Source of the DNA: Patescibacteria group bacterium | GTDB lineage: Bacteria; Patescibacteriota; Microgenomatia; UBA12405 | Length of the DNA: 64,000 bases | Direction of reading: 5' to 3' | Assembly: GCA_038062455.1 (NCBI GenBank) | Contig: JBBTXE010000001.1 | Span: 58,371 to 122,370 of the forward strand | Shown here: in pieces, positions 494 through 53,511 of the stretch | How positions within the stretch are numbered: the first letter of the stretch is position 1 | How the letters are laid out: each line of letters opens with the position of its first letter | Notes under the pieces: model-generated | Told to the model about the DNA's origin: nothing | Seen by the model: the letters and a program-made list of their open reading frames with translations, nothing else | The model's database searches: none | Program-made: the position numbers and the translations under genes

Positions 494-1321
494 ATGAAAA
501 ACTATAATATTGCAAGTATTAAGAGTTTGGTTGACAAAGCCAAGTCGGCTTTAGTAGTCGTTCCCACCCTTTCCGTTGATAACGTTGGTGCCGCTCTCGC
601 CTTGGCCCTTTCCCTTAAAAAGAGTGGCCGCGAAGTCAAAGTCTATTGTCCTCAAAAACCTGATCAAAATTACAGCAAACTAAGCGGTTTGGAATTAATC
701 ACCGATACTTATATTGCTTCTGATCTGGTTGTTTCTCTTAACTACCCCCTCAATCAAATCGAACAGGTTTCCTACAACGATGACGGTGGTCGCCTAAATT
801 TGGTCGTTAAAACCAAATTCGGTGCCGCCAAGGTGGAAAACAGCCAAATTGTTATCAACAATAGTTCCTCTTCGACTGATCTTTGTTTTATGCTTGGTGA
901 CGAATCTCCGCTTGGTGCCAATGCCTCAATCGTCAATCAGGGAGACTGGATTTTAATTTCCCCCGTTGCTGTTACCAAAACCTGGGCCAAAGCCACTTTG
1001 GTTGATGCCGATGCTCCTTTTTCCGAAATCTTTACCTTTTTATTACCCATGCTTGGGTTAAATCTGGATATCGACTCCGGCAAGGATTTGCTCATTGGGC
1101 TTCGGGTAGCCACCCAGTCCTTTAGTGTCAATGTCTCCCCCGAATCTTTCGAAGCCGGGGCTGTTTGTCTTCGGGCTACCCAACCTCCTGAAGCTGACGG
1201 CCTTGCCGCTCCCGCTTTCGCCCCCAATACTTTTGACAATCAAACCCCGATTGAAAATATCGAAAAAGGCGCCTCTTTTGTTCCGGGCACCAACAAAGCC
1301 AATCCCACCCCGGTGGTTTAA
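494..1321 (+). CDS. hypothetical protein, degenerate DHH/NrnA-like fold (catalytic DHH-type residues not conserved)
   Basis: The N-terminus IKSLVDKAKSALVVVPTLSVDNVGAALALALSLKKSGREVKVY parallels the DHH phosphoesterase N-terminal motif region, but the Asp/His metal ligands are replaced. The position after infB is where nrnA-like genes often sit. Confidence 0.4.
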   Translation: MKNYNIASIKSLVDKAKSALVVVPTLSVDNVGAALALALSLKKSGREVKVYCPQKPDQNYSKLSGLELITDTYIASDLVVSLNYPLNQIEQVSYNDDGGRLNLVVKTKFGAAKVENSQIVINNSSSSTDLCFMLGDESPLGANASIVNQGDWILISPVAVTKTWAKATLVDADAPFSEIFTFLLPMLGLNLDIDSGKDLLIGLRVATQSFSVNVSPESFEAGAVCLRATQPPEADGLAAPAFAPNTFDNQTPIENIEKGASFVPGTNKANPTPVV

Positions 1322-1323
1322 AA
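1295..1323 (+). repeat. direct repeat copy 1 (29 nt, covers the last 8 codons plus stop of ORF 494-1321)
   Basis: aaagccaatcccaccccggtggtttaaaa is identical to 1622-1650. Confidence 0.9.
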
Positions 1324-1338
1324 CTAAATATTTTTACT

Positions 1339-1608
1339 ATGGCAACAAATATCTCAAAACTGGAAACACTGTTAAGAGAAAGAGGATATAACATATATTG
1401 TAGCCCAATATTTAACCCTCCGAGAACACCCCTTGATGTACCCGTTATTAAGAATATTGGTGAGAAAGGTATTAAATGTTCTGGTGCTTTTTATGTCCCA
1501 GAGAGAACACGACTTTTTGATTGGTGTGGATCATGCCCAGCATATTCACCAGATATAAAATCCCGAGAAAGAAAAGTTAAAAACAATAACCTTCGTTTTG
1601 AAGAATAA
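1339..1608 (+). CDS. hypothetical small Cys-containing protein (cassette ORF)
   Basis: 89-aa ORF with an ATG start that fills the space between the two 29-nt repeat copies. No recognisable family. Confidence 0.4.
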   Translation: MATNISKLETLLRERGYNIYCSPIFNPPRTPLDVPVIKNIGEKGIKCSGAFYVPERTRLFDWCGSCPAYSPDIKSRERKVKNNNLRFEE

Positions 1609-1621
1609 TTCAAAAATTAAT

Positions 1622-1650
1622 AAAGCCAATCCCACCCCGGTGGTTTAAAA
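1622..1650 (+). repeat. direct repeat copy 2 (29 nt echo of the 3' end of ORF 494-1321)
   Basis: Perfect match to 1295-1323, non-coding in this context. Confidence 0.9.
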
Positions 1651-1655
1651 AGGAT

Positions 1656-1898
1656 ATGAAAATAAATTACGATAGTGCTATTTCCATCAAGGCTATCGGA
1701 TGTGGAGCCAATGCGACTATTCACAGAGGCTTAGATCAATATACTCTTAGGCGTAAGGTAGGAGACGCCAAAGGGATAAAAGAATTGTGTGGTGGATGTG
1801 TTTTCAGACGTGTTCCTGACCAACCCAATATGGCTGAAATGATTCCGGGACAAAAACGCTTGCGTGCATGTGTAGACGAAAATGCACCTACAACATAA
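1656..1898 (+). CDS. hypothetical small Cys-containing protein
   Basis: 80-aa ORF that starts 5 nt after repeat copy 2. It contains a CGGC motif; no family recognised. Confidence 0.4.
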   Translation: MKINYDSAISIKAIGCGANATIHRGLDQYTLRRKVGDAKGIKELCGGCVFRRVPDQPNMAEMIPGQKRLRACVDENAPTT

Positions 1899-1903
1899 TT
1901 CCA

Positions 1904-1912
1904 TGTTATAAT
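1904..1912 (+). promoter_or_regulatory. candidate extended -10 promoter element (TGTTATAAT) for rpsO-pnp
   Basis: Exact TGnTATAAT match about 75 nt upstream of the rpsO ATG. Confidence 0.3.
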
Positions 1913-1932
1913 CTCTCTGCACTACCTTTGGT

Positions 1933-1958
1933 ATTTCCGTAGCCATTCGGAAATTTTT
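1933..1958 (+). promoter_or_regulatory. hairpin plus T-run in the rpsO leader (weak terminator of the upstream ORF or S15 autoregulatory element)
   Basis: ATTTCCG-8 nt loop-CGGAAAT followed by TTTT. Confidence 0.3.
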
Positions 1959-1986
1959 ACTAAAACCAATCTTAGCGCTATAAACT

Positions 1987-2256
1987 ATGGCCTTAACCAC
2001 CGAAGAAAAAACGGAAATTGTTACCAAGTTTGCTCAAGCCAAAGGCGATACCGGCTCTCCTGAAATCCAAGTAGCGATTCTGTCAAAAGAAATCGACAAA
2101 CTTCAGGGACATTTAGGTGATAACAAACATGATTCACCGGCCAAAAGGGGACTATTAAGCAAAATCGCCAAAAGACGCCGGCTTCTTCGCTACCTTTCTC
2201 TTCACAATGATGACCGCTATGGTAAGTTAATCAAAGCCTTGGGTCTAAAAAAATAA
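1987..2256 (+). CDS. rpsO: 30S ribosomal protein S15
   Basis: 89 aa. GDTGSPEIQVAILS...RRRLLRYL is the S15 signature. Immediately upstream of pnp. Confidence 0.95.
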   Translation: MALTTEEKTEIVTKFAQAKGDTGSPEIQVAILSKEIDKLQGHLGDNKHDSPAKRGLLSKIAKRRRLLRYLSLHNDDRYGKLIKALGLKK

Positions 2257-2258
2257 AA

Positions 2259-4451
2259 ATGGACAATTTTTCCTTTGATCTAAAATTATCAGACGATAAG
2301 CAGATTCACCTTGAATCAGGCAAACTCGCCCCTCAAGCCAATGCTGCAGTTCTGGCCGCCTTTGGTAAAACCGTAGTTTTGGCCACCGTCGTTTTAGGGG
2401 CCGTTGACAAAAGCAAAGATTATTTTCCACTTTCAGTTGAGTTCACCGACAAACTTTACGCCGGCGGATTTATCAAAGGCGGCAAATGGGTCAAACGCGA
2501 AGGCGCCCCCTCTGATACCGCCATTCTTTTTGGTCGGATTATCGATCGGGCTATTCGTCCTCTTTTCCCCGCCGGTTTCAAACAGGAAGTTCAGGTTATG
2601 GCCACAATTTTAAGTAATGACAAAGATAATGACGTCATTATCCCTGCCTTTACGGCCGTCTCCGCCGCCCTAATGCTTTCCGATATTCCCTTTAACGGTC
2701 CGGTATCGGCTGTCCGTGTTGGCCTAAAAGAAGGCAAAATCTCTCTCTTCCCCACCGTTTCTGAACTTAAGACCTCACCTCTTGACCTACTGGTCTGCCG
2801 CGATTTAGAAGGCATCAATATGATTGAGGCCGGTGCTCAAATTGTCGATAACGACATCGTCCTTTCAGCTATTGAAGAGGCTTTCAAAACCGGCGAACAA
2901 CTAAACCGGCGGTTGACTGAATTTTCCCAAAAACACGCCAAAGCAAAAATCAAGTTCGAAGACCTCTCCCCCCCGAAAGAATTAGTAACCGAAATTTCCA
3001 AACTTATTAATCCCAACCTTGAAGAGTTTATGAAAGACGGCACCGACGGTGCTCATATTGCTGCCGAAGAAAAAATCAAAGAAATAGTTATCAGTAACTA
3101 TCAAACCCAAATTGATGCCGGTGAAATCGAAGTCGGCCAGCTTATCGATGCAGTTGATGTTTTAGTTAGACTCTATGTCCGCCAACATACCCTCGCCGGC
3201 ACCCGCTATGACCATCGCCGGCTGGATGAAATTCGGCCTCTAAATATTGAAGTCGATGTCTTGCCTTGTACCCACGGCTCCGCCCTCTTTGAACGTGGTC
3301 TGACCCAAGCTATTACCATTACCACTCTCGGTCCTCTGGCTGATCAGCAATATTTACAGGACAGCAGCGGCGAATCTACCAAGCGCTATATTCATTATTA
3401 TTCCGCTGCTCCCTTTTCCACCGGTCAGACCGGACGTTTCGGCCGTCCCGGTCGTCGGGAAATCGGTCACGGGGCTCTAGCCGAAAAAGCTCTGCTTCCG
3501 GTTCTTCCTTCAATTGAAGAGTTTCCTTACACTATTGCCCTAACATCCGAAGTTTTATCTCAAAATGGCTCCTCCTCCATGGCTTCCACCTGCGGTTCCA
3601 CCCTAAGTCTTATGGCCGCTGGTGTCCCCATCAAAGATAAAGTAGCCGGTATTTCCGTGGGCATGGTATCAGACGCTGACAAATATCTTTTATTAACCGA
3701 TATTGCCGGTCTTGAAGATCACTGCGGCGATATGGATTTTAAAATTACCGGTACCCGAACAGGTATCACTGCCATTCAACTCGATATCAAACGAATGGGC
3801 TTAAGCCTCAATATGATCCGCGATACCTTCACCGCCTCGACCAAAGCCCGTTTAGCCATTTTGGATAAAATTGATTCGATTCTTTCCGCTCCCAGAACAG
3901 AACTCTCTCCCTATGCTCCCAAAATTAAATTAATCACTCTCCCTGAAGACAAAATCGGTGAAGTGATTGGCAGCGGTGGCAAAACCATCAAAGCCCTAAT
4001 GGAAAAATTTGCTGTCCAAATCGATATTGATGATGATGGCCGGGCCTCTATTTGTTCTCAAGATATAGCTAAAATCGATGCCTGTGTCTTCCAAATCGAA
4101 TCAATGATTCGGGATATTAATATCGGTGAAGAATTTGATGGAGTAGTTACCAGAGTTGAAAACTTTGGCGCCTTTGTCGAATTTTTACCCGGTCGTGAAG
4201 CCCTCCTCCACGTTTCCGAAATGACCGGCGGCTTCTTATCTGATCCGGGAACTATCATCAAAATTGGCGATAAACTTCACGTCCGGGTTTCCGGTTTTAA
4301 CGACAATTACCAAATCAAACTTTCCGCTCCCGAATTCAAAGCCGCTCATCCTAGCAATCCTGATGCGGTACCCGGTCGTCCCCGCCCCGATTTTGACCGC
4401 AATCGCCAAAACTTCCGCAACTTCAGTCCTCCCGTCCGTCCCCGAAGATAA
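2259..4451 (+). CDS. pnp: polyribonucleotide nucleotidyltransferase (PNPase)
   Basis: 730 aa with two RNase PH-like domains, KH (IGEVIGSGGKTIK) and S1 (GVVTRVENFGAFVEF) domains. Confidence 0.97.
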   Translation: MDNFSFDLKLSDDKQIHLESGKLAPQANAAVLAAFGKTVVLATVVLGAVDKSKDYFPLSVEFTDKLYAGGFIKGGKWVKREGAPSDTAILFGRIIDRAIRPLFPAGFKQEVQVMATILSNDKDNDVIIPAFTAVSAALMLSDIPFNGPVSAVRVGLKEGKISLFPTVSELKTSPLDLLVCRDLEGINMIEAGAQIVDNDIVLSAIEEAFKTGEQLNRRLTEFSQKHAKAKIKFEDLSPPKELVTEISKLINPNLEEFMKDGTDGAHIAAEEKIKEIVISNYQTQIDAGEIEVGQLIDAVDVLVRLYVRQHTLAGTRYDHRRLDEIRPLNIEVDVLPCTHGSALFERGLTQAITITTLGPLADQQYLQDSSGESTKRYIHYYSAAPFSTGQTGRFGRPGRREIGHGALAEKALLPVLPSIEEFPYTIALTSEVLSQNGSSSMASTCGSTLSLMAAGVPIKDKVAGISVGMVSDADKYLLLTDIAGLEDHCGDMDFKITGTRTGITAIQLDIKRMGLSLNMIRDTFTASTKARLAILDKIDSILSAPRTELSPYAPKIKLITLPEDKIGEVIGSGGKTIKALMEKFAVQIDIDDDGRASICSQDIAKIDACVFQIESMIRDINIGEEFDGVVTRVENFGAFVEFLPGREALLHVSEMTGGFLSDPGTIIKIGDKLHVRVSGFNDNYQIKLSAPEFKAAHPSNPDAVPGRPRPDFDRNRQNFRNFSPPVRPRR

Positions 4452-9664: not shown

Positions 9665-9893
9665 ACAGCCGATTATAACACTAGTATCTTTTTCATATAA
9701 CCACTGTCTACTCTCGGGGTACAGGTGGGGTTATCTCGCCCGCCTTCCAACTTTATGCCAAATTAGTCGGCGGTGATATCGTTAACGATTCCAACATCAT
9801 TCATTTGCCTTGCTTCCAACTTGGGTCAGATAAAATGCTCCAGAGATTTGTAGTTGATCTGCCCGACAAATCGATCGAGGTTATTGCCAATTA

Positions 9894-9925
9894 GTAGAGA
9901 CCCCGCCGCTGCGGGGCGTCTCTAC
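9894..9925. repeat. REP-like palindrome (GTAGAGACCCCGCCGCTGCGGGGCGTCTCTAC)
   Basis: Imperfect hairpin sharing both arms with the 28-bp palindromes at 44967 and 45285. Confidence 0.7.
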
Positions 9926-9963
9926 AAAACCATCAAAAGATATATTCAAAACAATGTGACCAA

Positions 9964-9992
9964 TTGGGAAAAAGATTCATATCATTTATAAT
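9964..9992 (+). promoter_or_regulatory. candidate proS promoter: -35 TTGGGA, 17 nt spacer, -10 TATAAT, ending 5 nt before the ATG
   Basis: The hexamers and spacing can be read directly. The geometry implies a leaderless or near-leaderless mRNA. Confidence 0.4.
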
Positions 9993-9997
9993 AGGCC

Positions 9998-11419
9998 ATG
10001 GCTAAATCTCAACTTAAAGATTTCAACACTGATCTCTCCGGGTGGTTTAATGATGTCGTTTTAAAGGCCGAATTGGCCGACTATGCCCCGATCAAAGGTT
10101 GTATGGTTATTCGTCCTTACGGCTACGCCCTATGGGAAAACATTCAGAAATTTATGGACCCGCTCATTAAAAACAGGGGAGTTGAAAATGCCTATTTCCC
10201 CCTTTTCATACCCATGCACTATCTTCAAAAAGAAAAAGAACACATCGAAGGTTTTGCCCCCTTACTGGCAGTAGTTACTATAGGAGGAGGTAAAGAATTA
10301 ACCGAAAAATTGGCCGTCAGACCAACATCAGAAATGGTTATGTACGATCTGTATAAAAAATGGTTTGGCAGTTGGCGCGATTTACCGGTTCGCCTAAACC
10401 AATGGTGCAATATCGTCCGCTGGGAAAAACGAACTTACCTTTTCCTCCGCACTTCTGAATTTTTATGGCAGGAGGGTCATTGCGCCCACCTGACCCATGA
10501 ACAAAGTCAAGAAGAAGTTATCTGGGCAATTAACATGTATCAACAAACTTATCAGGAACTTATGGCTGTTTATGGAATTATTGGAGTCAAAAGCGACTCA
10601 GAAAAATTTGCCGGCGGAGCCAAAACTTACACTTTCGAATCTTTAATGCCCAGTGGCAAATCTCTCCAGGCCTGCACCTCTCACGATTTAGGCCAAAATT
10701 TTTCTAAATCCCTGGATTGGACCGTTCAGAACAAAGATGGTCAAAAAGTTCATCCTTGGCAAAATAGCTGGGGTTTCACCACTCGCAGTATCGGTGCTCT
10801 GATTATGACCCACGGTGATGAAAACGGATTAGTTCTGCCGCCCAAAATTGCCCCAATCCAGATCATTATTGTACCCATTCCCGGCCATCAGCAAGCTATT
10901 CTAAAATCGATAGAACTTTATGAAAAACTAAAAAATAATTATCGAGTTAAATTAGACAATGTTGACGGTGAAACCGCCGGTTTCAAATTTAATAAGTGGG
11001 AACTAAAAGGAGTACCTCTCCGTTTGGAAATTGGTGATGATGACGCATCTAAAGATTTAGTTACCATTTACCGTCGTGATACCGGGGCTAAAGAAAAAAT
11101 TGGTTTACTTAATTTAGAAAAATATCTCTTCTCCACCCTAGCCGGTATCCAAAACTCTTTATTTGCAAAACATAAAAAATTTACCAACGATAATACATTT
11201 TTAGTTGATTCTTACGATGAGTTTAAAAAAATTATGAGTACCACCCGGGGATTTATTTTAGCCCATTGGTGTGAAAACCCCGGTTGTGAAAACGAAATTA
11301 AAAAAGACACCAAAGCCACCACCCGCTGTCTCCCCCTGGATTCCAAAGAAGAAGAGGGTAAATGTATTCACTGTGGCAAGATTTCCCATCATCGTTGGCT
11401 CTTTGCCCTATCATACTAA
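9998..11419 (+). CDS. proS: proline--tRNA ligase (archaeal/eukaryote-like class II form)
   Basis: 473 aa. GCMVIRPYGYALWE..., class II motifs, and a C-terminal zinc-binding CENPGCE...CIHCG. Confidence 0.93.
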   Translation: MAKSQLKDFNTDLSGWFNDVVLKAELADYAPIKGCMVIRPYGYALWENIQKFMDPLIKNRGVENAYFPLFIPMHYLQKEKEHIEGFAPLLAVVTIGGGKELTEKLAVRPTSEMVMYDLYKKWFGSWRDLPVRLNQWCNIVRWEKRTYLFLRTSEFLWQEGHCAHLTHEQSQEEVIWAINMYQQTYQELMAVYGIIGVKSDSEKFAGGAKTYTFESLMPSGKSLQACTSHDLGQNFSKSLDWTVQNKDGQKVHPWQNSWGFTTRSIGALIMTHGDENGLVLPPKIAPIQIIIVPIPGHQQAILKSIELYEKLKNNYRVKLDNVDGETAGFKFNKWELKGVPLRLEIGDDDASKDLVTIYRRDTGAKEKIGLLNLEKYLFSTLAGIQNSLFAKHKKFTNDNTFLVDSYDEFKKIMSTTRGFILAHWCENPGCENEIKKDTKATTRCLPLDSKEEEGKCIHCGKISHHRWLFALSY

Positions 11420-11453
11420 TAATACTTGATACTTAATACATAATACGTAATAC
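11412..11453 (+). repeat. heptanucleotide tandem array, NTRATAC units x5-6
   Basis: catacta ataatac ttgatac ttaatac ataatac gtaatac, ending 7 nt before the ftsK ATG. Confidence 0.8.
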
Positions 11454-11460
11454 TGTATAT

Positions 11461-22169: not shown

Positions 22170-23169
22170 GTTTTTTGTTCACCAACTCGTCTAATATTCT
22201 CCACCTTCTCTTCTTTTCACTCATCGGTACGTCATCCTCATATAGTTTGGCGGAAACTGTGCCTCGCCTCGGGCTATACTTATTTATATAAGCAATTTCA
22301 AATATGACCTTTTTACAGACCGAAACTGTTTTTTGAAAAGCGGCTTCGTCCTCTCCCGGAAACCCGACAATTATATCGGTTGACAATCTTACTCCCGGAA
22401 TTTTCTTTTTAATTCTTGACACCAATTTCAAATATTCCTCTTGTGTATATCCCCGTTTCATTCTTTTCAAAATTTCATCATCACCCGACTGAAAAGGCAG
22501 ATGAATTAAGCGGTCAATATTTTTATATTTGGCGATGGTGTCAATTAGCTCATCCGAAAAATCCCAGGGGTTACTACTAATAAATGAAACTTTTTTTAGA
22601 TTTTTTTGGGCCACTGCCTCCAGTAATTTTGGGAAACTGGGCTGGTAGGAATTTACATTTTGTCCAATCAATACTACTTCTTCAAAGCCCTTGTCTATCG
22701 CTTTATCCACCTCATTTAAAATTTCCTTCATGCTTCTGGATATTTCCCGACCGCGGGAGTAGGGGACTATACAATAGGAGCAATAATTGTCGCAACCGGA
22801 GCTTATTGGAACCAATGCCGCGCTTCTATTTCTCCTTAGTGGCTCTACTTCAAAACTAATGTTTTTTATCGGCAACATCTCATCTACACCCTCGATCTTC
22901 TTTTTAGCAATCGGCACCAAACACCCGGTCAAAATAATTTTGGGTTTTTTATTCGTAATTCGTAATTCGTAATTCGTAATTTTATTGATGAGTCCATATA
23001 CTCTGTTTTCTGCCGATTCCCGGACGACACAACTATTTATAACTACCACATCTGCCTCTTTCCAATCATCTACCAATTTATCACCCTTCTCCCAAAAAAA
23101 GGTTTTTATCCTCTCCGAATCAGCTTCATTCTGAACACAACCAAAAGTCTTTATATAAATTTTCGCCAT
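22159..23169 (-). CDS. MiaB/RimO-family radical SAM methylthiotransferase (no TRAM domain)
   Basis: IKTFGCVQNEADSE N-terminal domain; radical SAM CDNYCSYC. The start at the internal ATG (MAKIYIK) avoids overlap with the neighbouring gene. Confidence 0.8.
   Translation of the reverse strand: MAKIYIKTFGCVQNEADSERIKTFFWEKGDKLVDDWKEADVVVINSCVVRESAENRVYGLINKITNYELRITNKKPKIILTGCLVPIAKKKIEGVDEMLPIKNISFEVEPLRRNRSAALVPISSGCDNYCSYCIVPYSRGREISRSMKEILNEVDKAIDKGFEEVVLIGQNVNSYQPSFPKLLEAVAQKNLKKVSFISSNPWDFSDELIDTIAKYKNIDRLIHLPFQSGDDEILKRMKRGYTQEEYLKLVSRIKKKIPGVRLSTDIIVGFPGEDEAAFQKTVSVCKKVIFEIAYINKYSPRRGTVSAKLYEDDVPMSEKKRRWRILDELVNKKPID
22951..22981 (+). repeat. heptanucleotide tandem array (ATTCGTA) x4.4 inside a CDS
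   Basis: attcgtaattcgtaattcgtaattcgtaatt, read on the minus strand as ITNYELRITN within the methylthiotransferase. Confidence 0.9.
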
Positions 23170-38965: not shown

Positions 38966-39526
38966 ATGATGAAATTTACTCCTCTATCTTTGTCGGGATT
39001 AATGTTAATCGAACCCCAAGTCTTTGGTGACGACCGCGGTTTTTTTATGGAAACATATTCCAAAAAAGAATTCACCCAAAACGGTATTAATATCGATTTT
39101 GTTCAGGATAATCATTCCCGGTCCGGCAATGGTGTTCTCCGTGGCCTTCACTTCCAAAAACCCCCTTTTGCCCAGGCCAAATTAATTCGGGTAAGCATGG
39201 GTGAAGTTCTCGATGTGGCAGTCGACATCCGCCCCGATTCTTCCACCTTTGGCAAATGGGATTCAGCCCATCTTTCAGCCGAAAATAAAAAAATGCTTTT
39301 TATTCCAGTCGGTTTTGCCCATGGTTTTTATTGTCTGACTGAAATTGTTGATTTCCAATACAAATGCAGCTCTTTCTATGATAAAGAGTCCGAAAGCGGT
39401 TTTTTATGGAACGACCCCGATGTCAATGTTGGTTGGTTGGCAGCGTCTCCTGTTCTCTCCGAAAAAGATAAATTACTGCCTTCCTTCAAATCCCAAATCA
39501 AGGATCTCAAAAAACTTGTCTGGTAA
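38966..39526 (+). CDS. rfbC: dTDP-4-dehydrorhamnose 3,5-epimerase
   Basis: FGDDRGFFMETY...VLRGLHFQ..P.AQAKL.RV..G...DVAVDIR signature. Confidence 0.92.
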   Translation: MMKFTPLSLSGLMLIEPQVFGDDRGFFMETYSKKEFTQNGINIDFVQDNHSRSGNGVLRGLHFQKPPFAQAKLIRVSMGEVLDVAVDIRPDSSTFGKWDSAHLSAENKKMLFIPVGFAHGFYCLTEIVDFQYKCSSFYDKESESGFLWNDPDVNVGWLAASPVLSEKDKLLPSFKSQIKDLKKLVW

Positions 39527-39535
39527 TTTTTATAA

Positions 39536-39570
39536 ATTATACGTAATACTTGATACTTAATACTTAATAC
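39536..39570 (+). repeat. heptanucleotide tandem array, NTRATAC units x5
   Basis: attatac gtaatac ttgatac ttaatac ttaatac, ending 5 nt before the rfbD ATG. Confidence 0.8.
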
Positions 39571-40454: not shown

Positions 40455-41634
40455 CCACCTTCTCCCCCTCCCGCACCCCAAAGTTAATCCCCCTATCTTC
40501 CGGATAAATATTGGCAAAATTCACGTTGATAATTTTTCCGGCTGTTTTTTGATAATTGATAATTGAGTGTTGATAATTGGCATCAACGATATGTTGCGCA
40601 TATTTAAATTTGAAAATATTTTTCTCTGAAATTTGTTTTTTATCAAAATCGGGTAAAATCTTTTTCAAATAATCAAAAAACTCCTGCCAAATTATTTTGT
40701 CATCAACTTTAAAATATCTATGGTTTTGAGGAAGATAGGTGCCAAGATAATAGACTTGTTTTTCTTGGTACTGAGTACTTGGTACTAAGTTCGTGTGTTG
40801 AATCATCGCCACGAAAGGGGATTTGGGATCAGTAATATTATGCCAATAAAATTTACTCAAATTTTGAGTTGATGAAAACACTGCCGTTATTGCCCCCAAA
40901 TAATCAACATTTAGTAACGCTTCCGAACTGATCACTGTATCGTAATTCGTAATTCGTAATTCGTAATTCGTAATTTTTGTATTTAGCTTTATTTCTCCCC
41001 CCAACTTCTTAATTCTCTTTTTCAGTTCTTTGATTATTTGCCCAAATCCCCCCATTAAATAACCCAATTTTTCACCACCTTTTTCGCTCGAATTGGCTCG
41101 GGTGTGAATTCGGGCCCAGAGCCAGGCCATCGAAATATCCTGATATCGATTGGCAAATTTTCCTTTTAATAACGGCTCCCAAATAATTTCATAGGCTCTT
41201 TCTCCACACCACTTTTTCATCCATTGATAGGCTAAAACATTTTCAAACTTCTGCCACTTTTTTTCTTTTTCCAAATAAATCTTTACTAAACCCAAACGAA
41301 CTTTGTCAAAAATATTTAACGGCTTAAAATGCAGTAAATCTATTGCCCCATTAAATGGCCACATTTTTTTACCAAAATATATCGCCGTTGATCCGTTAAA
41401 CCATTTTAATTTTGACGATAGTCCCAAGTCTTCAATTAATTCGATAATATATTTATCGGTTTTAAAAATATGATGATAGGCTTTCTCCAAACCCTTCCCC
41501 TCAATTTTAAAAGACCCCAAAAGTCCGCCCAATTCCTTTTCTTTTTCAAAAATCGTCACCTCGTGTCCCGCTTGTAATAATCGATACCCTGCCACCAATC
41601 CGGTTATTCCGGCTCCGATAATTGCTACCTTCAT
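40399..41634 (-). CDS. FAD/NAD(P)-binding oxidoreductase (amine oxidase/protoporphyrinogen-oxidase-like)
   Basis: MKVAIIGAGITGLVAGYRL...IFEKEKELGG dinucleotide-binding motif. Its 3' end overlaps rfbD convergently by 56 nt. Confidence 0.7.
   Translation of the reverse strand: MKVAIIGAGITGLVAGYRLLQAGHEVTIFEKEKELGGLLGSFKIEGKGLEKAYHHIFKTDKYIIELIEDLGLSSKLKWFNGSTAIYFGKKMWPFNGAIDLLHFKPLNIFDKVRLGLVKIYLEKEKKWQKFENVLAYQWMKKWCGERAYEIIWEPLLKGKFANRYQDISMAWLWARIHTRANSSEKGGEKLGYLMGGFGQIIKELKKRIKKLGGEIKLNTKITNYELRITNYDTVISSEALLNVDYLGAITAVFSSTQNLSKFYWHNITDPKSPFVAMIQHTNLVPSTQYQEKQVYYLGTYLPQNHRYFKVDDKIIWQEFFDYLKKILPDFDKKQISEKNIFKFKYAQHIVDANYQHSIINYQKTAGKIINVNFANIYPEDRGINFGVREGEKVAKKADVSSLQGLRGEFSF
40938..40975 (+). 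repeat. heptanucleotide tandem array (ATTCGTA) x4 perfect, plus degenerate/partial units, inside a CDS
   Basis: tatcgta attcgta attcgta attcgta attcgta att, read on the minus strand as KITNYELRITNYD. Confidence 0.9.
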
Positions 41635-42429: not shown

Positions 42430-42511
42430 GTCGGGCATTGTAAATTTATTTTCCCATTGCTATGATACTATGTTTATACTTCAGCTTTAATTATTATAAT
42501 AATTTATCTAA

Positions 42512-42546
42512 AAAATACGTAATACTTAATACGTAATACTTGATAC
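42512..42546 (+). repeat. heptanucleotide tandem array, NTRATAC units x5
   Basis: aaaatac gtaatac ttaatac gtaatac ttgatac, ending 9 nt before the fusA ATG. Confidence 0.8.
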
Positions 42547-42555
42547 TATTTTTAT

Positions 42556-44675: not shown

Positions 44676-45278
44676 GTGGTCGTTGACGATCCTTTTCGTT
44701 TTGCTGATAAATTTGCCGTCAAATCATCCCGTTTACCAAATTGGGACTACTCATCTCCCGGAATATATTTCAATACTATTTGCACTCTCAATCACAATAA
44801 TTTCTTTGGAAAAATTGTTGATAATAAAATGGTTTTGTCGACTTGCGGTCAGATTGCTCGCGATGAATTAATTAAAACAATTCAAATTCGAAACAATATT
44901 TCCATCGACCTGTGGGTAATAATGCCCAACCATATTCATCTGTTAATCACCATTTATGATTGTCATGTAGAGACGCCCCGCGGGGCGTCTCTACGAATAA
45001 ACCCCACGTCTCTACAGCAAAATAAAGTGATAACCATATCTCAAGAAAAACGCGAGTTGTTTCAGAGGTTAAATACCAAATCAAATCAAATAGTCCCGAA
45101 AATGATTAATCAATTTAAATCACGTGTCACTCTGGTTTGCAGACAAAACAATTTCTTTTTCGCCTGGCAATCTCGTTTTTATGATGAAATCATCAAAGAC
45201 AATCAACGGTTTATGGTAGTTAAACACTATATTCAAAACAATATTGCTAACTGGAACAAAGATAAATTCTATCGATAA
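44676..45278 (+). CDS. IS200/IS605-like HUH Y1 transposase, REP-associated (RayT-like)
   Basis: HUH motif PNHIHLL and the catalytic Tyr region WQSRFYDEII. Flanked by, and interrupted in-frame by, 28-bp palindromes. The GTG start is uncertain. Confidence 0.7.
   Translation: MVVDDPFRFADKFAVKSSRLPNWDYSSPGIYFNTICTLNHNNFFGKIVDNKMVLSTCGQIARDELIKTIQIRNNISIDLWVIMPNHIHLLITIYDCHVETPRGASLRINPTSLQQNKVITISQEKRELFQRLNTKSNQIVPKMINQFKSRVTLVCRQNNFFFAWQSRFYDEIIKDNQRFMVVKHYIQNNIANWNKDKFYR
44967..44994. repeat. REP-like perfect 28-bp palindrome GTAGAGACGCCCCGCGGGGCGTCTCTAC (inside the RayT-like ORF)
   Basis: Self-complementary. Translated as VETPRGASL. The next ~22 nt resemble the sequence following the 45285 copy. 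Confidence 0.9.
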
Positions 45279-45284
45279 TAATCC

Positions 45285-45312
45285 GTAGAGACGCCCCGCG
45301 GGGCGTCTCTAC
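45285..45312. repeat. REP-like perfect 28-bp palindrome (downstream of the RayT-like ORF)
   Basis: Identical to 44967-44994. Confidence 0.9.
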
Positions 45313-49338: not shown

Positions 49339-49373
49339 ATTCGTAATTCGTAATTCGTAATTGATAATTAATT
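49339..49373 (+). repeat. heptanucleotide tandem array: ATTCGTA x3, ATTGATA, ATTAATT
   Basis: Ends 4 nt before the rpsS ATG. Shares a 23-nt stretch (attcgtaattcgtaattgataatta) with the 53477 array. Confidence 0.85.
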
Positions 49374-53476: not shown

Positions 53477-53511
53477 ATTCGTAATTCGTAATTGATAATT
53501 AATAATTAATA
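53477..53511 (+). repeat. heptanucleotide tandem array: ATTCGTA x2, ATTGATA, ATTAATA x2
   Basis: Ends 3 nt before the rplF ATG. Confidence 0.85.

Follow-up and report, generated by a model that had tools for sequence, protein, structure and literature searches.

The stretch of DNA considered here (the window) covers 64,000 nucleotides (nt) of contig JBBTXE010000001.1, from a member of Candidatus Shapirobacteria (Patescibacteria, the candidate phyla radiation or CPR) of the Hainich groundwater. Around its beginning, the genes follow one another in the order nusA, infB (ending at 488), A275 (494-1321), ORF89, ORF80, a promoter-like region with the S15 leader, rpsO, pnp (2259-4451), and the genes of a Lon-like AAA protein and of a NYN protein. 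Our subject is the short interval between A275 and rpsO, where the 3' end of A275 is found twice, on both sides of the small open reading frame (ORF) called ORF89. Its features, all on the plus strand, are as follows:

494-1321, plus strand: A275, 275 amino acids, lying between infB and the array; its last ~27 nt and stop codon are the proposed recombination site.
1295-1323, plus strand: site copy 1, the authentic tail of A275, encoding KANPTPVV, the stop codon and 2 further nt.
1324-1621, plus strand: unique part of cassette 1, holding ORF89 (1339-1608), which encodes a small Cys-containing protein.
1622-1650, plus strand: site copy 2, a second instance of the gene tail, which closes cassette 1 on its 3' side and is non-coding.
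1651-1903, plus strand: cassette 2, with ORF80 (1656-1898) and its CGGC motif, taken as the older resident gene.
1904-2043, plus strand: right border of the array, made of the rpsO promoter region (TTATAAT at ~1906-1912) and the S15 leader.
1987-2256, plus strand: rpsO, ribosomal protein S15 (Pfam Ribosomal_S15, E 3e-26), the downstream anchor.

An earlier note on this DNA had described a perfect 29-nt repeat bracketing a single 89-amino-acid ORF, and this description holds to the exact coordinates. The 29-mer AAAGCCAATCCCACCCCGGTGGTTTAAAA has exactly two matches in the window, at 1295-1323 and 1622-1650, both on the plus strand and with 0 mismatches, against none in 100 dinucleotide-preserving shuffles even when 3 mismatches are allowed, and the pair is the longest local direct repeat of the 64 kb. 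The first copy reads AAA GCC AAT CCC ACC CCG GTG GTT TAA, then AA; the second does not share the frame of ORF89 and goes untranslated. Because the C-terminal peptide N-P-T-P-x-x-stop is kept across A275 homologues, the first copy is the true end of the gene and the second is its duplicate. The 298 nt between them contain one substantial ORF (1339-1608, 89 amino acids), and ORF80 (80 amino acids) starts 5 nt past the second copy. The fear that the repeat might be a collapsed or chimeric assembly proved unfounded. Indeed, a look-up of the region by exact-protein matches in ENA and in Logan assemblies returned 12 distinct contig records from 12 samples or assemblies, both copies being present in 11 of them and the last one beginning inside the insert; 10 contigs share the 327-nt spacing and are identical across 1295-1986, and one error-prone assembly has a spacing of 326 nt. 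Since 11 independently assembled contigs carry both copies, we consider the repeat to be real.

To place the locus among relatives, we scanned GTDB genomes and JGI metagenomes for A275, which gave 80 loci, 71 of them with a complete A275, grouped into 58 lineages at 97% amino acid identity; all 58 are Shapirobacteria, and their A275 homologue always stands after infB. In L020, L021 and L048 (A275 80-83% identical at the amino acid level), the gene tail (…AAC CCC ACC CCG/A ATG GTT TAA) runs straight into an ORF80 homologue (77 amino acids, 44-47% identity, at the same place) and then into the rpsO promoter and leader, with neither ORF89 nor a second tail copy, and these loci are therefore empty sites for the ORF89 insert. 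The boundaries can be read directly against L045, the closest relative (88% amino acid identity, flanks 86-90% identical at the nucleotide level): homology with the window ends exactly at 1321 and restarts at 1904. Moreover, the closest relatives L045 (88%), L020 (83%) and L043 (82%) each have a different first cassette, when the region upstream of rpsO (1904-2043) is strongly kept across Shapirobacteria and forms the fixed right border of an otherwise variable array.

The same turnover can be followed between strains. L046 and L047 belong to one lineage and are 99.3-99.6% identical in their flanks, and they differ by the clean presence or absence of 309 bp, made of an 88-amino-acid ORF and one tail copy: L046 is a precise empty site, and L047, like L043, carries the tail-bracketed 309-bp unit, whose ORF is unrelated to ORF89. 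This is, in a sister species, the gain or loss that the earlier note had predicted from recombination between the copies; its reading of the repeat as the trace of a recent insertion or duplication is likewise supported, by the relatives devoid of the insert and by the foreign composition of ORF89 described below. Overall, array content differs in 3 of the 9 lineages with several members (at least 97% A275 identity). In two comparisons (L065/L066 vs L067, and L024/L054 vs L057), wholly different arrays stand between near-identical flanks, with breakpoints within ~13 nt of the stop codon on one side and ~95 nt upstream of rpsO on the other. As a separate observation, many metagenome contigs end in or just after the A275-rpsO array (L049, L059, L093, L095, L050, L060, L061, L072, L076, L085 and L090), which would fit assembly fragmentation through strain heterogeneity.

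The fetched DNA reaches rpsO in 48 of the 58 lineages, and in these the distance from A275 to rpsO is hypervariable, between 47 and 1721 nt with a median of 458. The arrays hold 103 small ORFs, all on the forward strand, which fall into ~60 BLAST families and have a median length of 86 amino acids (mostly 70-110); a CxxC motif is present in 49 of the 103, and Cys makes up 2.9% of their residues, against 0.76% in the housekeeping proteins of the window. At least 6 lineages have copies of their own A275 tail on both sides of cargo ORFs; the cargo differs, and the boundaries are nearly the same. The copy of L043/L047 matches at 28 of 30 nt and brackets the unrelated 88-amino-acid ORF, that of L045 (25/30) follows a 109-amino-acid ORF, that of L058 matches at 26/30, and that of L052 (22/30) is read in frame as …NSTPTA. 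L059 has two extra copies, one (28/30) after a 103-amino-acid ORF and another, more decayed, forming the in-frame C-terminus …IPTPVV of a 132-amino-acid ORF; weaker copies are seen in L095 (two), L067 and L044/L078. Taken together, secondary copies match the tail at 22-29 of 30 nt, and the maximum in shuffled controls is 17-21 of 30. Despite differing cargo, the end of the stop codon is always preceded by 24-31 nt of the repeated block and followed by 0-4 nt of it. The number of cassettes per array is two in the window, three in L059 and at least four in L095, and in repeat-bearing arrays each ORF is set off from the preceding site copy by 4-20 nt and from the following one by 0-13 nt.

Traces of the tail are also found at the end of the cargo proteins themselves: a tail-like C-terminus, defined as [PS]T[ATVI] or P[VM]V, is borne by 11 of the 103 cassette ORFs but, among 925 control ORFs taken from the flanks, by a single one. 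ORF80 (…NAPTT) is one of them, and its C-terminus is possibly a decayed in-frame site copy. The farther a site copy of L059 stands from the gene, the more it has decayed (28/28, then about 21/27), and the window would behave alike if the end of ORF80 were such a copy; this gradient is consistent with insertion at the first position. The idea that degenerate tail copies might exist in all relatives was rejected, these being present in a minority only. Across 112 loci and the window, the site motif is found only at the gene tail or inside the array, and always on the plus strand. It is absent from 2.9 million viral contigs, so that a phage or plasmid attachment site (attP) carrying the tail was discarded as a source. 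In the more distant L083 (1936-2515) and L103 (4001-4598), two ORF89-family paralogues follow the A275 homologue immediately, one behind the other, and no tail copy separates them; cassette genes can therefore multiply or persist without recognisable site copies. On this basis, the locus is supported as one instance of a recurrent, site-specific cassette array, of which ORF89 and ORF80 would be unrelated members, drawn from a large gene pool restricted to this locus.

The composition of ORF89 sets it apart from its surroundings. Its GC content is 0.356 and its GC content at third codon positions (GC3) is 0.211, below that of all 42 window genes tested (mean 0.407, standard deviation 0.047, minimum 0.268), so that ORF89 is compositionally foreign; the insert as a whole (1324-1621) has a GC content of 0.33, and only 3% of 298-nt windows are equally AT-rich. 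The earlier note had proposed profile searches on the two small proteins, and these were silent as to known families and informative as to kinship: Pfam, NCBIfam, PHROGs and PADLOC returned nothing for ORF89, ORF80 or ~20 cassette proteins of relatives, a PIN toxin in L043 excepted, when HMMER and profile searches revealed an ORF89 family. A word-indexed search giving self-hits only had made ORF89 and ORF80 look like complete orphans, a view abandoned when a full HMMER scan found for ORF89 the homologue P0003 (84 amino acids, 49% identity over the whole length, E 7e-16). A profile of the family added six more proteins beyond P0003 and ORF89's own fragment. All members with a readable context come immediately after an A275 homologue and, on contigs long enough to tell, before rpsO; they include genes at the same locus in the distant lineages L083, L103, L037 and L089. 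The family shares the motifs C-P-x-F, K-C-x-G and C-x-x-C-P, one Cys not being conserved in P0003.

ORF80 belongs to a distinct CxxC family, and with no BLASTP alignment between the two proteins we discarded the view of ORF89 and ORF80 as paralogues born of a tandem duplication. Matches of ORF89 to a 2473-amino-acid HYR_4C-repeat protein and to a WD40/STAND protein were taken for sums of weak repeat matches and were not used, and single-sequence AlphaFold models were unreliable (predicted local distance difference test scores of 40 and 60). The PIN toxin mentioned above closes the array of L043 (5690-6329; also in L046 and L047), where an 86-amino-acid ORF overlaps the gene of a 131-amino-acid PIN-domain toxin (VapBC-like); such a two-gene VapBC-like module is typical stabilising cargo of cassette arrays and islands.

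The repeated tail itself seems to be kept as DNA and not only as peptide. At residues that are identical between A275 homologues, third-position identity is 0.46-0.73 in the body of the gene, against 4/6 to 8/8 in its last eight codons; between the window and L059, and between the window and L062, 8 of 8 third positions are kept in the tail, when the body gives 0.53 and 0.61. Third positions being kept in the tail far above the body, we conclude that the site is constrained at the nucleotide level. With regard to the origin of the secondary copies, 6 of the 8 differences between copy and resident tail within block codons 3-9 are synonymous in the A275 frame, a bias that a non-coding copy drifting in place would not give. 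In L047, the second copy departs from the resident tail by CCG ATG -> CCC GTG, which yields the PVV tail typical of other lineages. The synonymous bias, this PVV variant and the ~0.5% difference between the flanks of L046 and L047 together suggest that the secondary copies most likely originated as functional tails in other lineages and move along with the cassettes. The second copy of the window is moreover identical over 31 nt, including 4 nt past the stop codon, to the cassette-borne copy of L059, and the A275 genes of the two lineages share only ~72% nucleotide identity. Finally, all differences between copies and resident tails lie to the left of the last 9-12 nt, which places any crossover near the stop codon.

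From the repeat, the empty sites, the recurrence of the same boundary with different cargo, the gain or loss between strains, the nucleotide constraint and the foreign cargo, we propose, with a probability of roughly 60%, that the tail of A275 heads an attachment (att)-like cassette array. The att-like site would be the final ~27-30 nt of the NrnA-like gene, with its end at the stop codon or slightly past it, and would be followed by a small array of promoterless single-gene cassettes up to the rpsO promoter. The ORF89 cassette would thus be a unit of 327 bp, made of one ORF, minimal flanks and its own copy of the site. This cassette-borne site would recombine with the resident gene tail, entry taking place at the first position of the array; insertion would regenerate an intact A275 3' end, leave direct repeats, and push the older ORF80 cassette towards rpsO, and the reverse reaction between the copies would excise the cassette precisely. 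Within this model we favour a trans-acting site-specific recombinase encoded elsewhere, which would cross over in the last 9-12 nt near the stop codon, possibly through a circular intermediate or a donor array. The cassettes would be transcribed by read-through from the nusA-infB operon, and no terminator-like site was found between A275 and the cassettes.

Several observations weigh against this proposal. According to the Pfam annotation of called genes, neither the 64-kb window nor the ~4 kb upstream of the locus in relatives encodes a tyrosine or serine recombinase, and neither an integrase-bearing element nor a gene of integrase size was seen in the arrays of the 58 lineages, the gap up to rpsO being at most 1721 nt in the 48 where it could be read. 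The folding of both strands around both copies is no better than that of shuffles (z from -0.5 to +0.4), and the 29-nt repeat has only a 4-5-bp dyad, so that a hairpin or an attC- or dif-like symmetry of the site is not supported. At the contig level, neither an excision nor a circular junction was observed. The earlier note had looked to relatives without the insert and to shorter variants in the population itself; the former exist, and the latter do not appear among the contigs found, including those from exact look-ups of the S15 protein, which returned only the same population and the L045 lineage. No internal site copy is recognisable in the arrays of ~50 of the 58 lineages, and the origin of the first cassette-borne copy is left unexplained. 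The difference between L046 and L047 could equally be a loss, and the whole-array swaps with breakpoints in the conserved flanks are explained by ordinary homologous recombination.

As regards enzymes, a DUF559 (Vsr/restriction-endonuclease-like) gene lies outside the window, between dnaJ and nusA (L001 827-1255), and is confined to this organism and its closest relatives L043, L045 and L048. It was considered as a candidate and discarded, because its presence does not track with that of tail copies.

The alternative that survives best does away with a dedicated enzyme: the same architecture could arise from natural transformation and RecA-dependent exchange between strains, the tail copies being scars that spread passively. 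Crossovers would then lie to the left in A275 and its tail and to the right in the promoter and leader of rpsO, with an occasional one in the internal tail copies of ~27-30 nt. We regard this scenario, in its principle as in its crossover places, as rather unlikely. It accounts for the swaps of whole arrays at 97% A275 identity or more (L065/L066 vs L067, L057 vs L024), in which the breakpoints fall at the stop codon, give or take 13 nt, and some 95 nt before rpsO; it agrees with the failure to find a recombinase in the window or in the few kb upstream in relatives; and no DNA of the left flank is better conserved than the tail. Perfect identity over 27-31 nt is about the lower limit for RecA-mediated exchange. 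However, exchange of this kind does not tell how a cargo ORF first acquired a tail copy, nor why the copies share a sharp left edge (though the adjacent PGTN codons are also conserved), and the constraint on synonymous sites of the tail would need a separate explanation. In L047, L045 and L058, the crossover would have to fall within only 9-12 nt of identity, which is too short for RecA unless heteroduplex repair intervened. To three further explanations we give far less weight.

One of them holds that the copies are a target-site duplication, made by an integrase, a transposase or a Cas1-like enzyme through nicks staggered by ~29 nt around the gene tail; foreign DNA would be ligated in, and gap repair would then copy the resident tail. 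The perfect identity of the two copies in the window and the recurrence of similar lengths (24-32 nt) at the same place speak for it; nonetheless, we deem it very improbable and already disfavoured by the data. Indeed, neither terminal sequences nor inverted repeats are common to the inserts, the changes that separate copies tend to be synonymous, and the second copy of L047 carries two adjacent changes that make it another lineage's tail, in flanks that differ by ~0.5%, so that this copy was imported and had no resident template. Besides, no transposase or Cas1 gene was found near the locus, the only transposase-like gene of the window, at 44.7 kb, being of the IS200-like Y1 type. This family is not known to create such duplications, and we rejected it as a cause, as its mechanism makes no 29-nt repeats.

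Another explanation sees in the tail copies RNA or translation signals and not recombination sites; they might for instance serve in processing, in coupling or re-initiation, or as a C-terminal tag common to the ORFs. It finds some footing in the fact that every ORF of the repeat-bearing arrays begins 4-20 nt after a tail copy, in the nucleotide-level constraint on the tail, and in the cassette ORFs of several lineages that read in frame into the copy and share …TPTA or …TPVV ends (the 11/103 vs 1/925 contrast given above). We nevertheless hold it to be hardly credible: most arrays have no internal copies, copies decay with distance from the gene, half of them are out of frame and untranslated, structure does not exceed that of shuffled controls, and neither the origin of the copies nor their clean gain and loss would be accounted for. 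Lastly, a one-off illegitimate insertion or local duplication, or an ancestral ORF89 lost in relatives, could be argued from the restriction of the exact cassette to one population, or from the presence of its family at the same locus in the distant L083, L103, L037 and L089, for which vertical descent with losses is conceivable, but it deserves next to no credence and is already contradicted by the recurrence of the bracketed architecture with unrelated cargo in at least 6 lineages, by the foreign composition of the cargo, by the different first cassettes of L045, L020 and L043, and by the exact stop of the window-L045 homology at the stop codon (1321) and its return at 1904.

Among described systems, integron arrays and clusters of attC sites lacking integron-integrases (CALINs) are among the closest to an att-like cassette array at A275. 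Both have compact, promoterless, mostly single-ORF cassettes that are very diverse and of unknown function, with a copy of the site at each 3' edge; in both, the newest cassette apparently stands first, beside the fixed site, expression probably comes from upstream read-through, and toxin-antitoxin systems are part of the cargo (here the PIN toxin of L043). Unlike in integrons, there is no intI nearby (in the 64-kb window and ~4 kb upstream in relatives), and the site is a ~30-nt copy of the coding 3' end of a housekeeping gene, with no attC-type imperfect hairpin in our comparison of folding with shuffles. The sites here are near-identical direct repeats, whereas attC sites are variable in sequence and conserved in structure, and the cassettes are smaller (about 250-420 bp) and hosted by CPR bacteria. 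Scale and cargo therefore match integron cassette arrays, but the locus cannot be counted among them, for it has shown no integrase, no integrase-bearing element and no attC-like hairpin.

The att-flanked arrangement also recalls tandem accretion and cis-mobilizable elements (CIMEs), in which direct repeats (attL/attR) hold the 3' end of the target gene and leave the gene intact (PMC5704250). Such att-bounded elements likewise have no integrase of their own, and repeated gene-proximal integration builds them into tandem arrays (PMC5704250). As in att-flanked elements, the repeats here come with an intact target-gene 3' end, and empty sites exist both in relatives (L020, L021, L048) and in a strain (L046). 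CIMEs, however, are decayed integrative and conjugative or integrative and mobilizable elements of kilobase scale, with a cognate integrase-bearing element at the same site, whereas the units here measure ~0.3 kb, hold a single ORF, and have no such element at their site in 58 lineages. Similarly, in the tycheposon islands of Prochlorococcus, att motifs flank the elements, one from the host and one incoming, newcomers push older elements inward, and partial remnants of the target gene lie in hypervariable islands of streamlined genomes (bioRxiv 10.1101/2020.12.28.424599). The logic of the Shapirobacteria array matches this att-flanked accretion; tycheposons nevertheless target tRNA genes, use tyrosine recombinases, carry replication modules and reach kilobase sizes, where we find the tail of a protein-coding gene, single tiny ORFs and no mobility genes.

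The presence, in different strains, of different whole genes between the same conserved gene pair, exchanged by homologous recombination after transformation, is the concept of the Minimal Mobile Elements of Neisseria. The whole-array swaps between near-identical Shapirobacteria lineages correspond to it, array content differing in 3 of the 9 lineages with several members, but these elements have no internal copies of the flanking gene end, and the gain or loss of single tail-bracketed cassettes falls outside the concept. The term itself is used in PMC1538595. What we observe differs from a transposon-type insertion in that the inserts share no ends and in that the second copy of L047 bears a foreign two-nucleotide variant. 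In the literature that we searched, neither this locus nor an integron-like array in CPR bacteria is described.

The genes that frame the array deserve a few words. Neither Pfam nor NCBIfam gave a hit for A275; a profile built from 19 homologues gave a weak match to NrnA/Rv2837c structures of the PDB (E 0.03, residues 16-106), and the position of the gene after infB fits the mycobacterial order infB-rbfA-nrnA. A275 is thus described here as a probable degenerate NrnA/DHH-like protein, as far as sequence can tell; it appears to be devoid of the DHH motif and may be a pseudo-enzyme. On the other side, the S15 leader (Rfam RF00114) at 1929-2043 scores 37.7 bits, slightly under the gathering score of 39.5 (E 8.5e-7), and was the sole match of the Rfam scan; the rpsO promoter was called from a -10-like box read in the sequence.

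Other repeated elements are found farther along the window. Between fusA and tuf (44676-45312), a 200-amino-acid ORF encodes the IS200-like Y1 transposase (RAYT-like; Pfam Y1_Tnp, 26.7 bits), and the perfect 28-nt palindrome GTAGAGACGCCCCGCGGGGCGTCTCTAC occurs inside this ORF (44967-44994) and again just past its stop codon (45285-45312). A related palindrome stands just upstream of proS (9890-9993), with a 53-nt remnant of the 3' end of the Y1 transposase gene. Tandem runs of the heptamer ATTCGTA, or of the related ATACTTA/ATACGTA, are found at 22937-22983, 40931-40977, 49339-49371 and 53477-53509, and also at 11400-11460, 39524-39570 and 42500-42547. The first of these (22937-22983) lies within a minus-strand gene of a MiaB-like radical-SAM protein, where it encodes …KITNYELRITNKK…, apparently as an in-frame insertion; the remaining runs look intergenic.

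From the perspective of CPR biology, the interest of the locus comes from the fact that Patescibacteria have tiny genomes and few recognisable mobile elements, and that the source of their strain-level variation in gene content is poorly understood. Inside the otherwise conserved nusA-infB...rpsO-pnp cluster, we describe a defined and recurrent hotspot at which single genes are gained and lost at a constrained site of ~30 bp. It is tempting, though still doubtful, to see in it a new gene-capture system of Shapirobacteria, a miniature analogue of integrons in which a remote recombinase would insert and excise ~0.3-kb single-gene cassettes, each with its own site, at a ~30-bp site overlapping a stop codon, and would thereby give each strain its own set of tiny Cys-rich proteins, with the nusA-infB operon driving their expression. 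If a dedicated recombinase does act there, this would be a new and very compact gene-capture platform and a potential tool for site-specific integration; if RecA alone is at work, the locus would be a clean natural example of cassette shuffling through short homology. Either way, it points to a large reservoir of Cys-rich micro-proteins that turn over fast and resemble no known protein (~60 families across 58 lineages); they are plausible candidates for host-interaction or defence functions in these episymbiotic bacteria.

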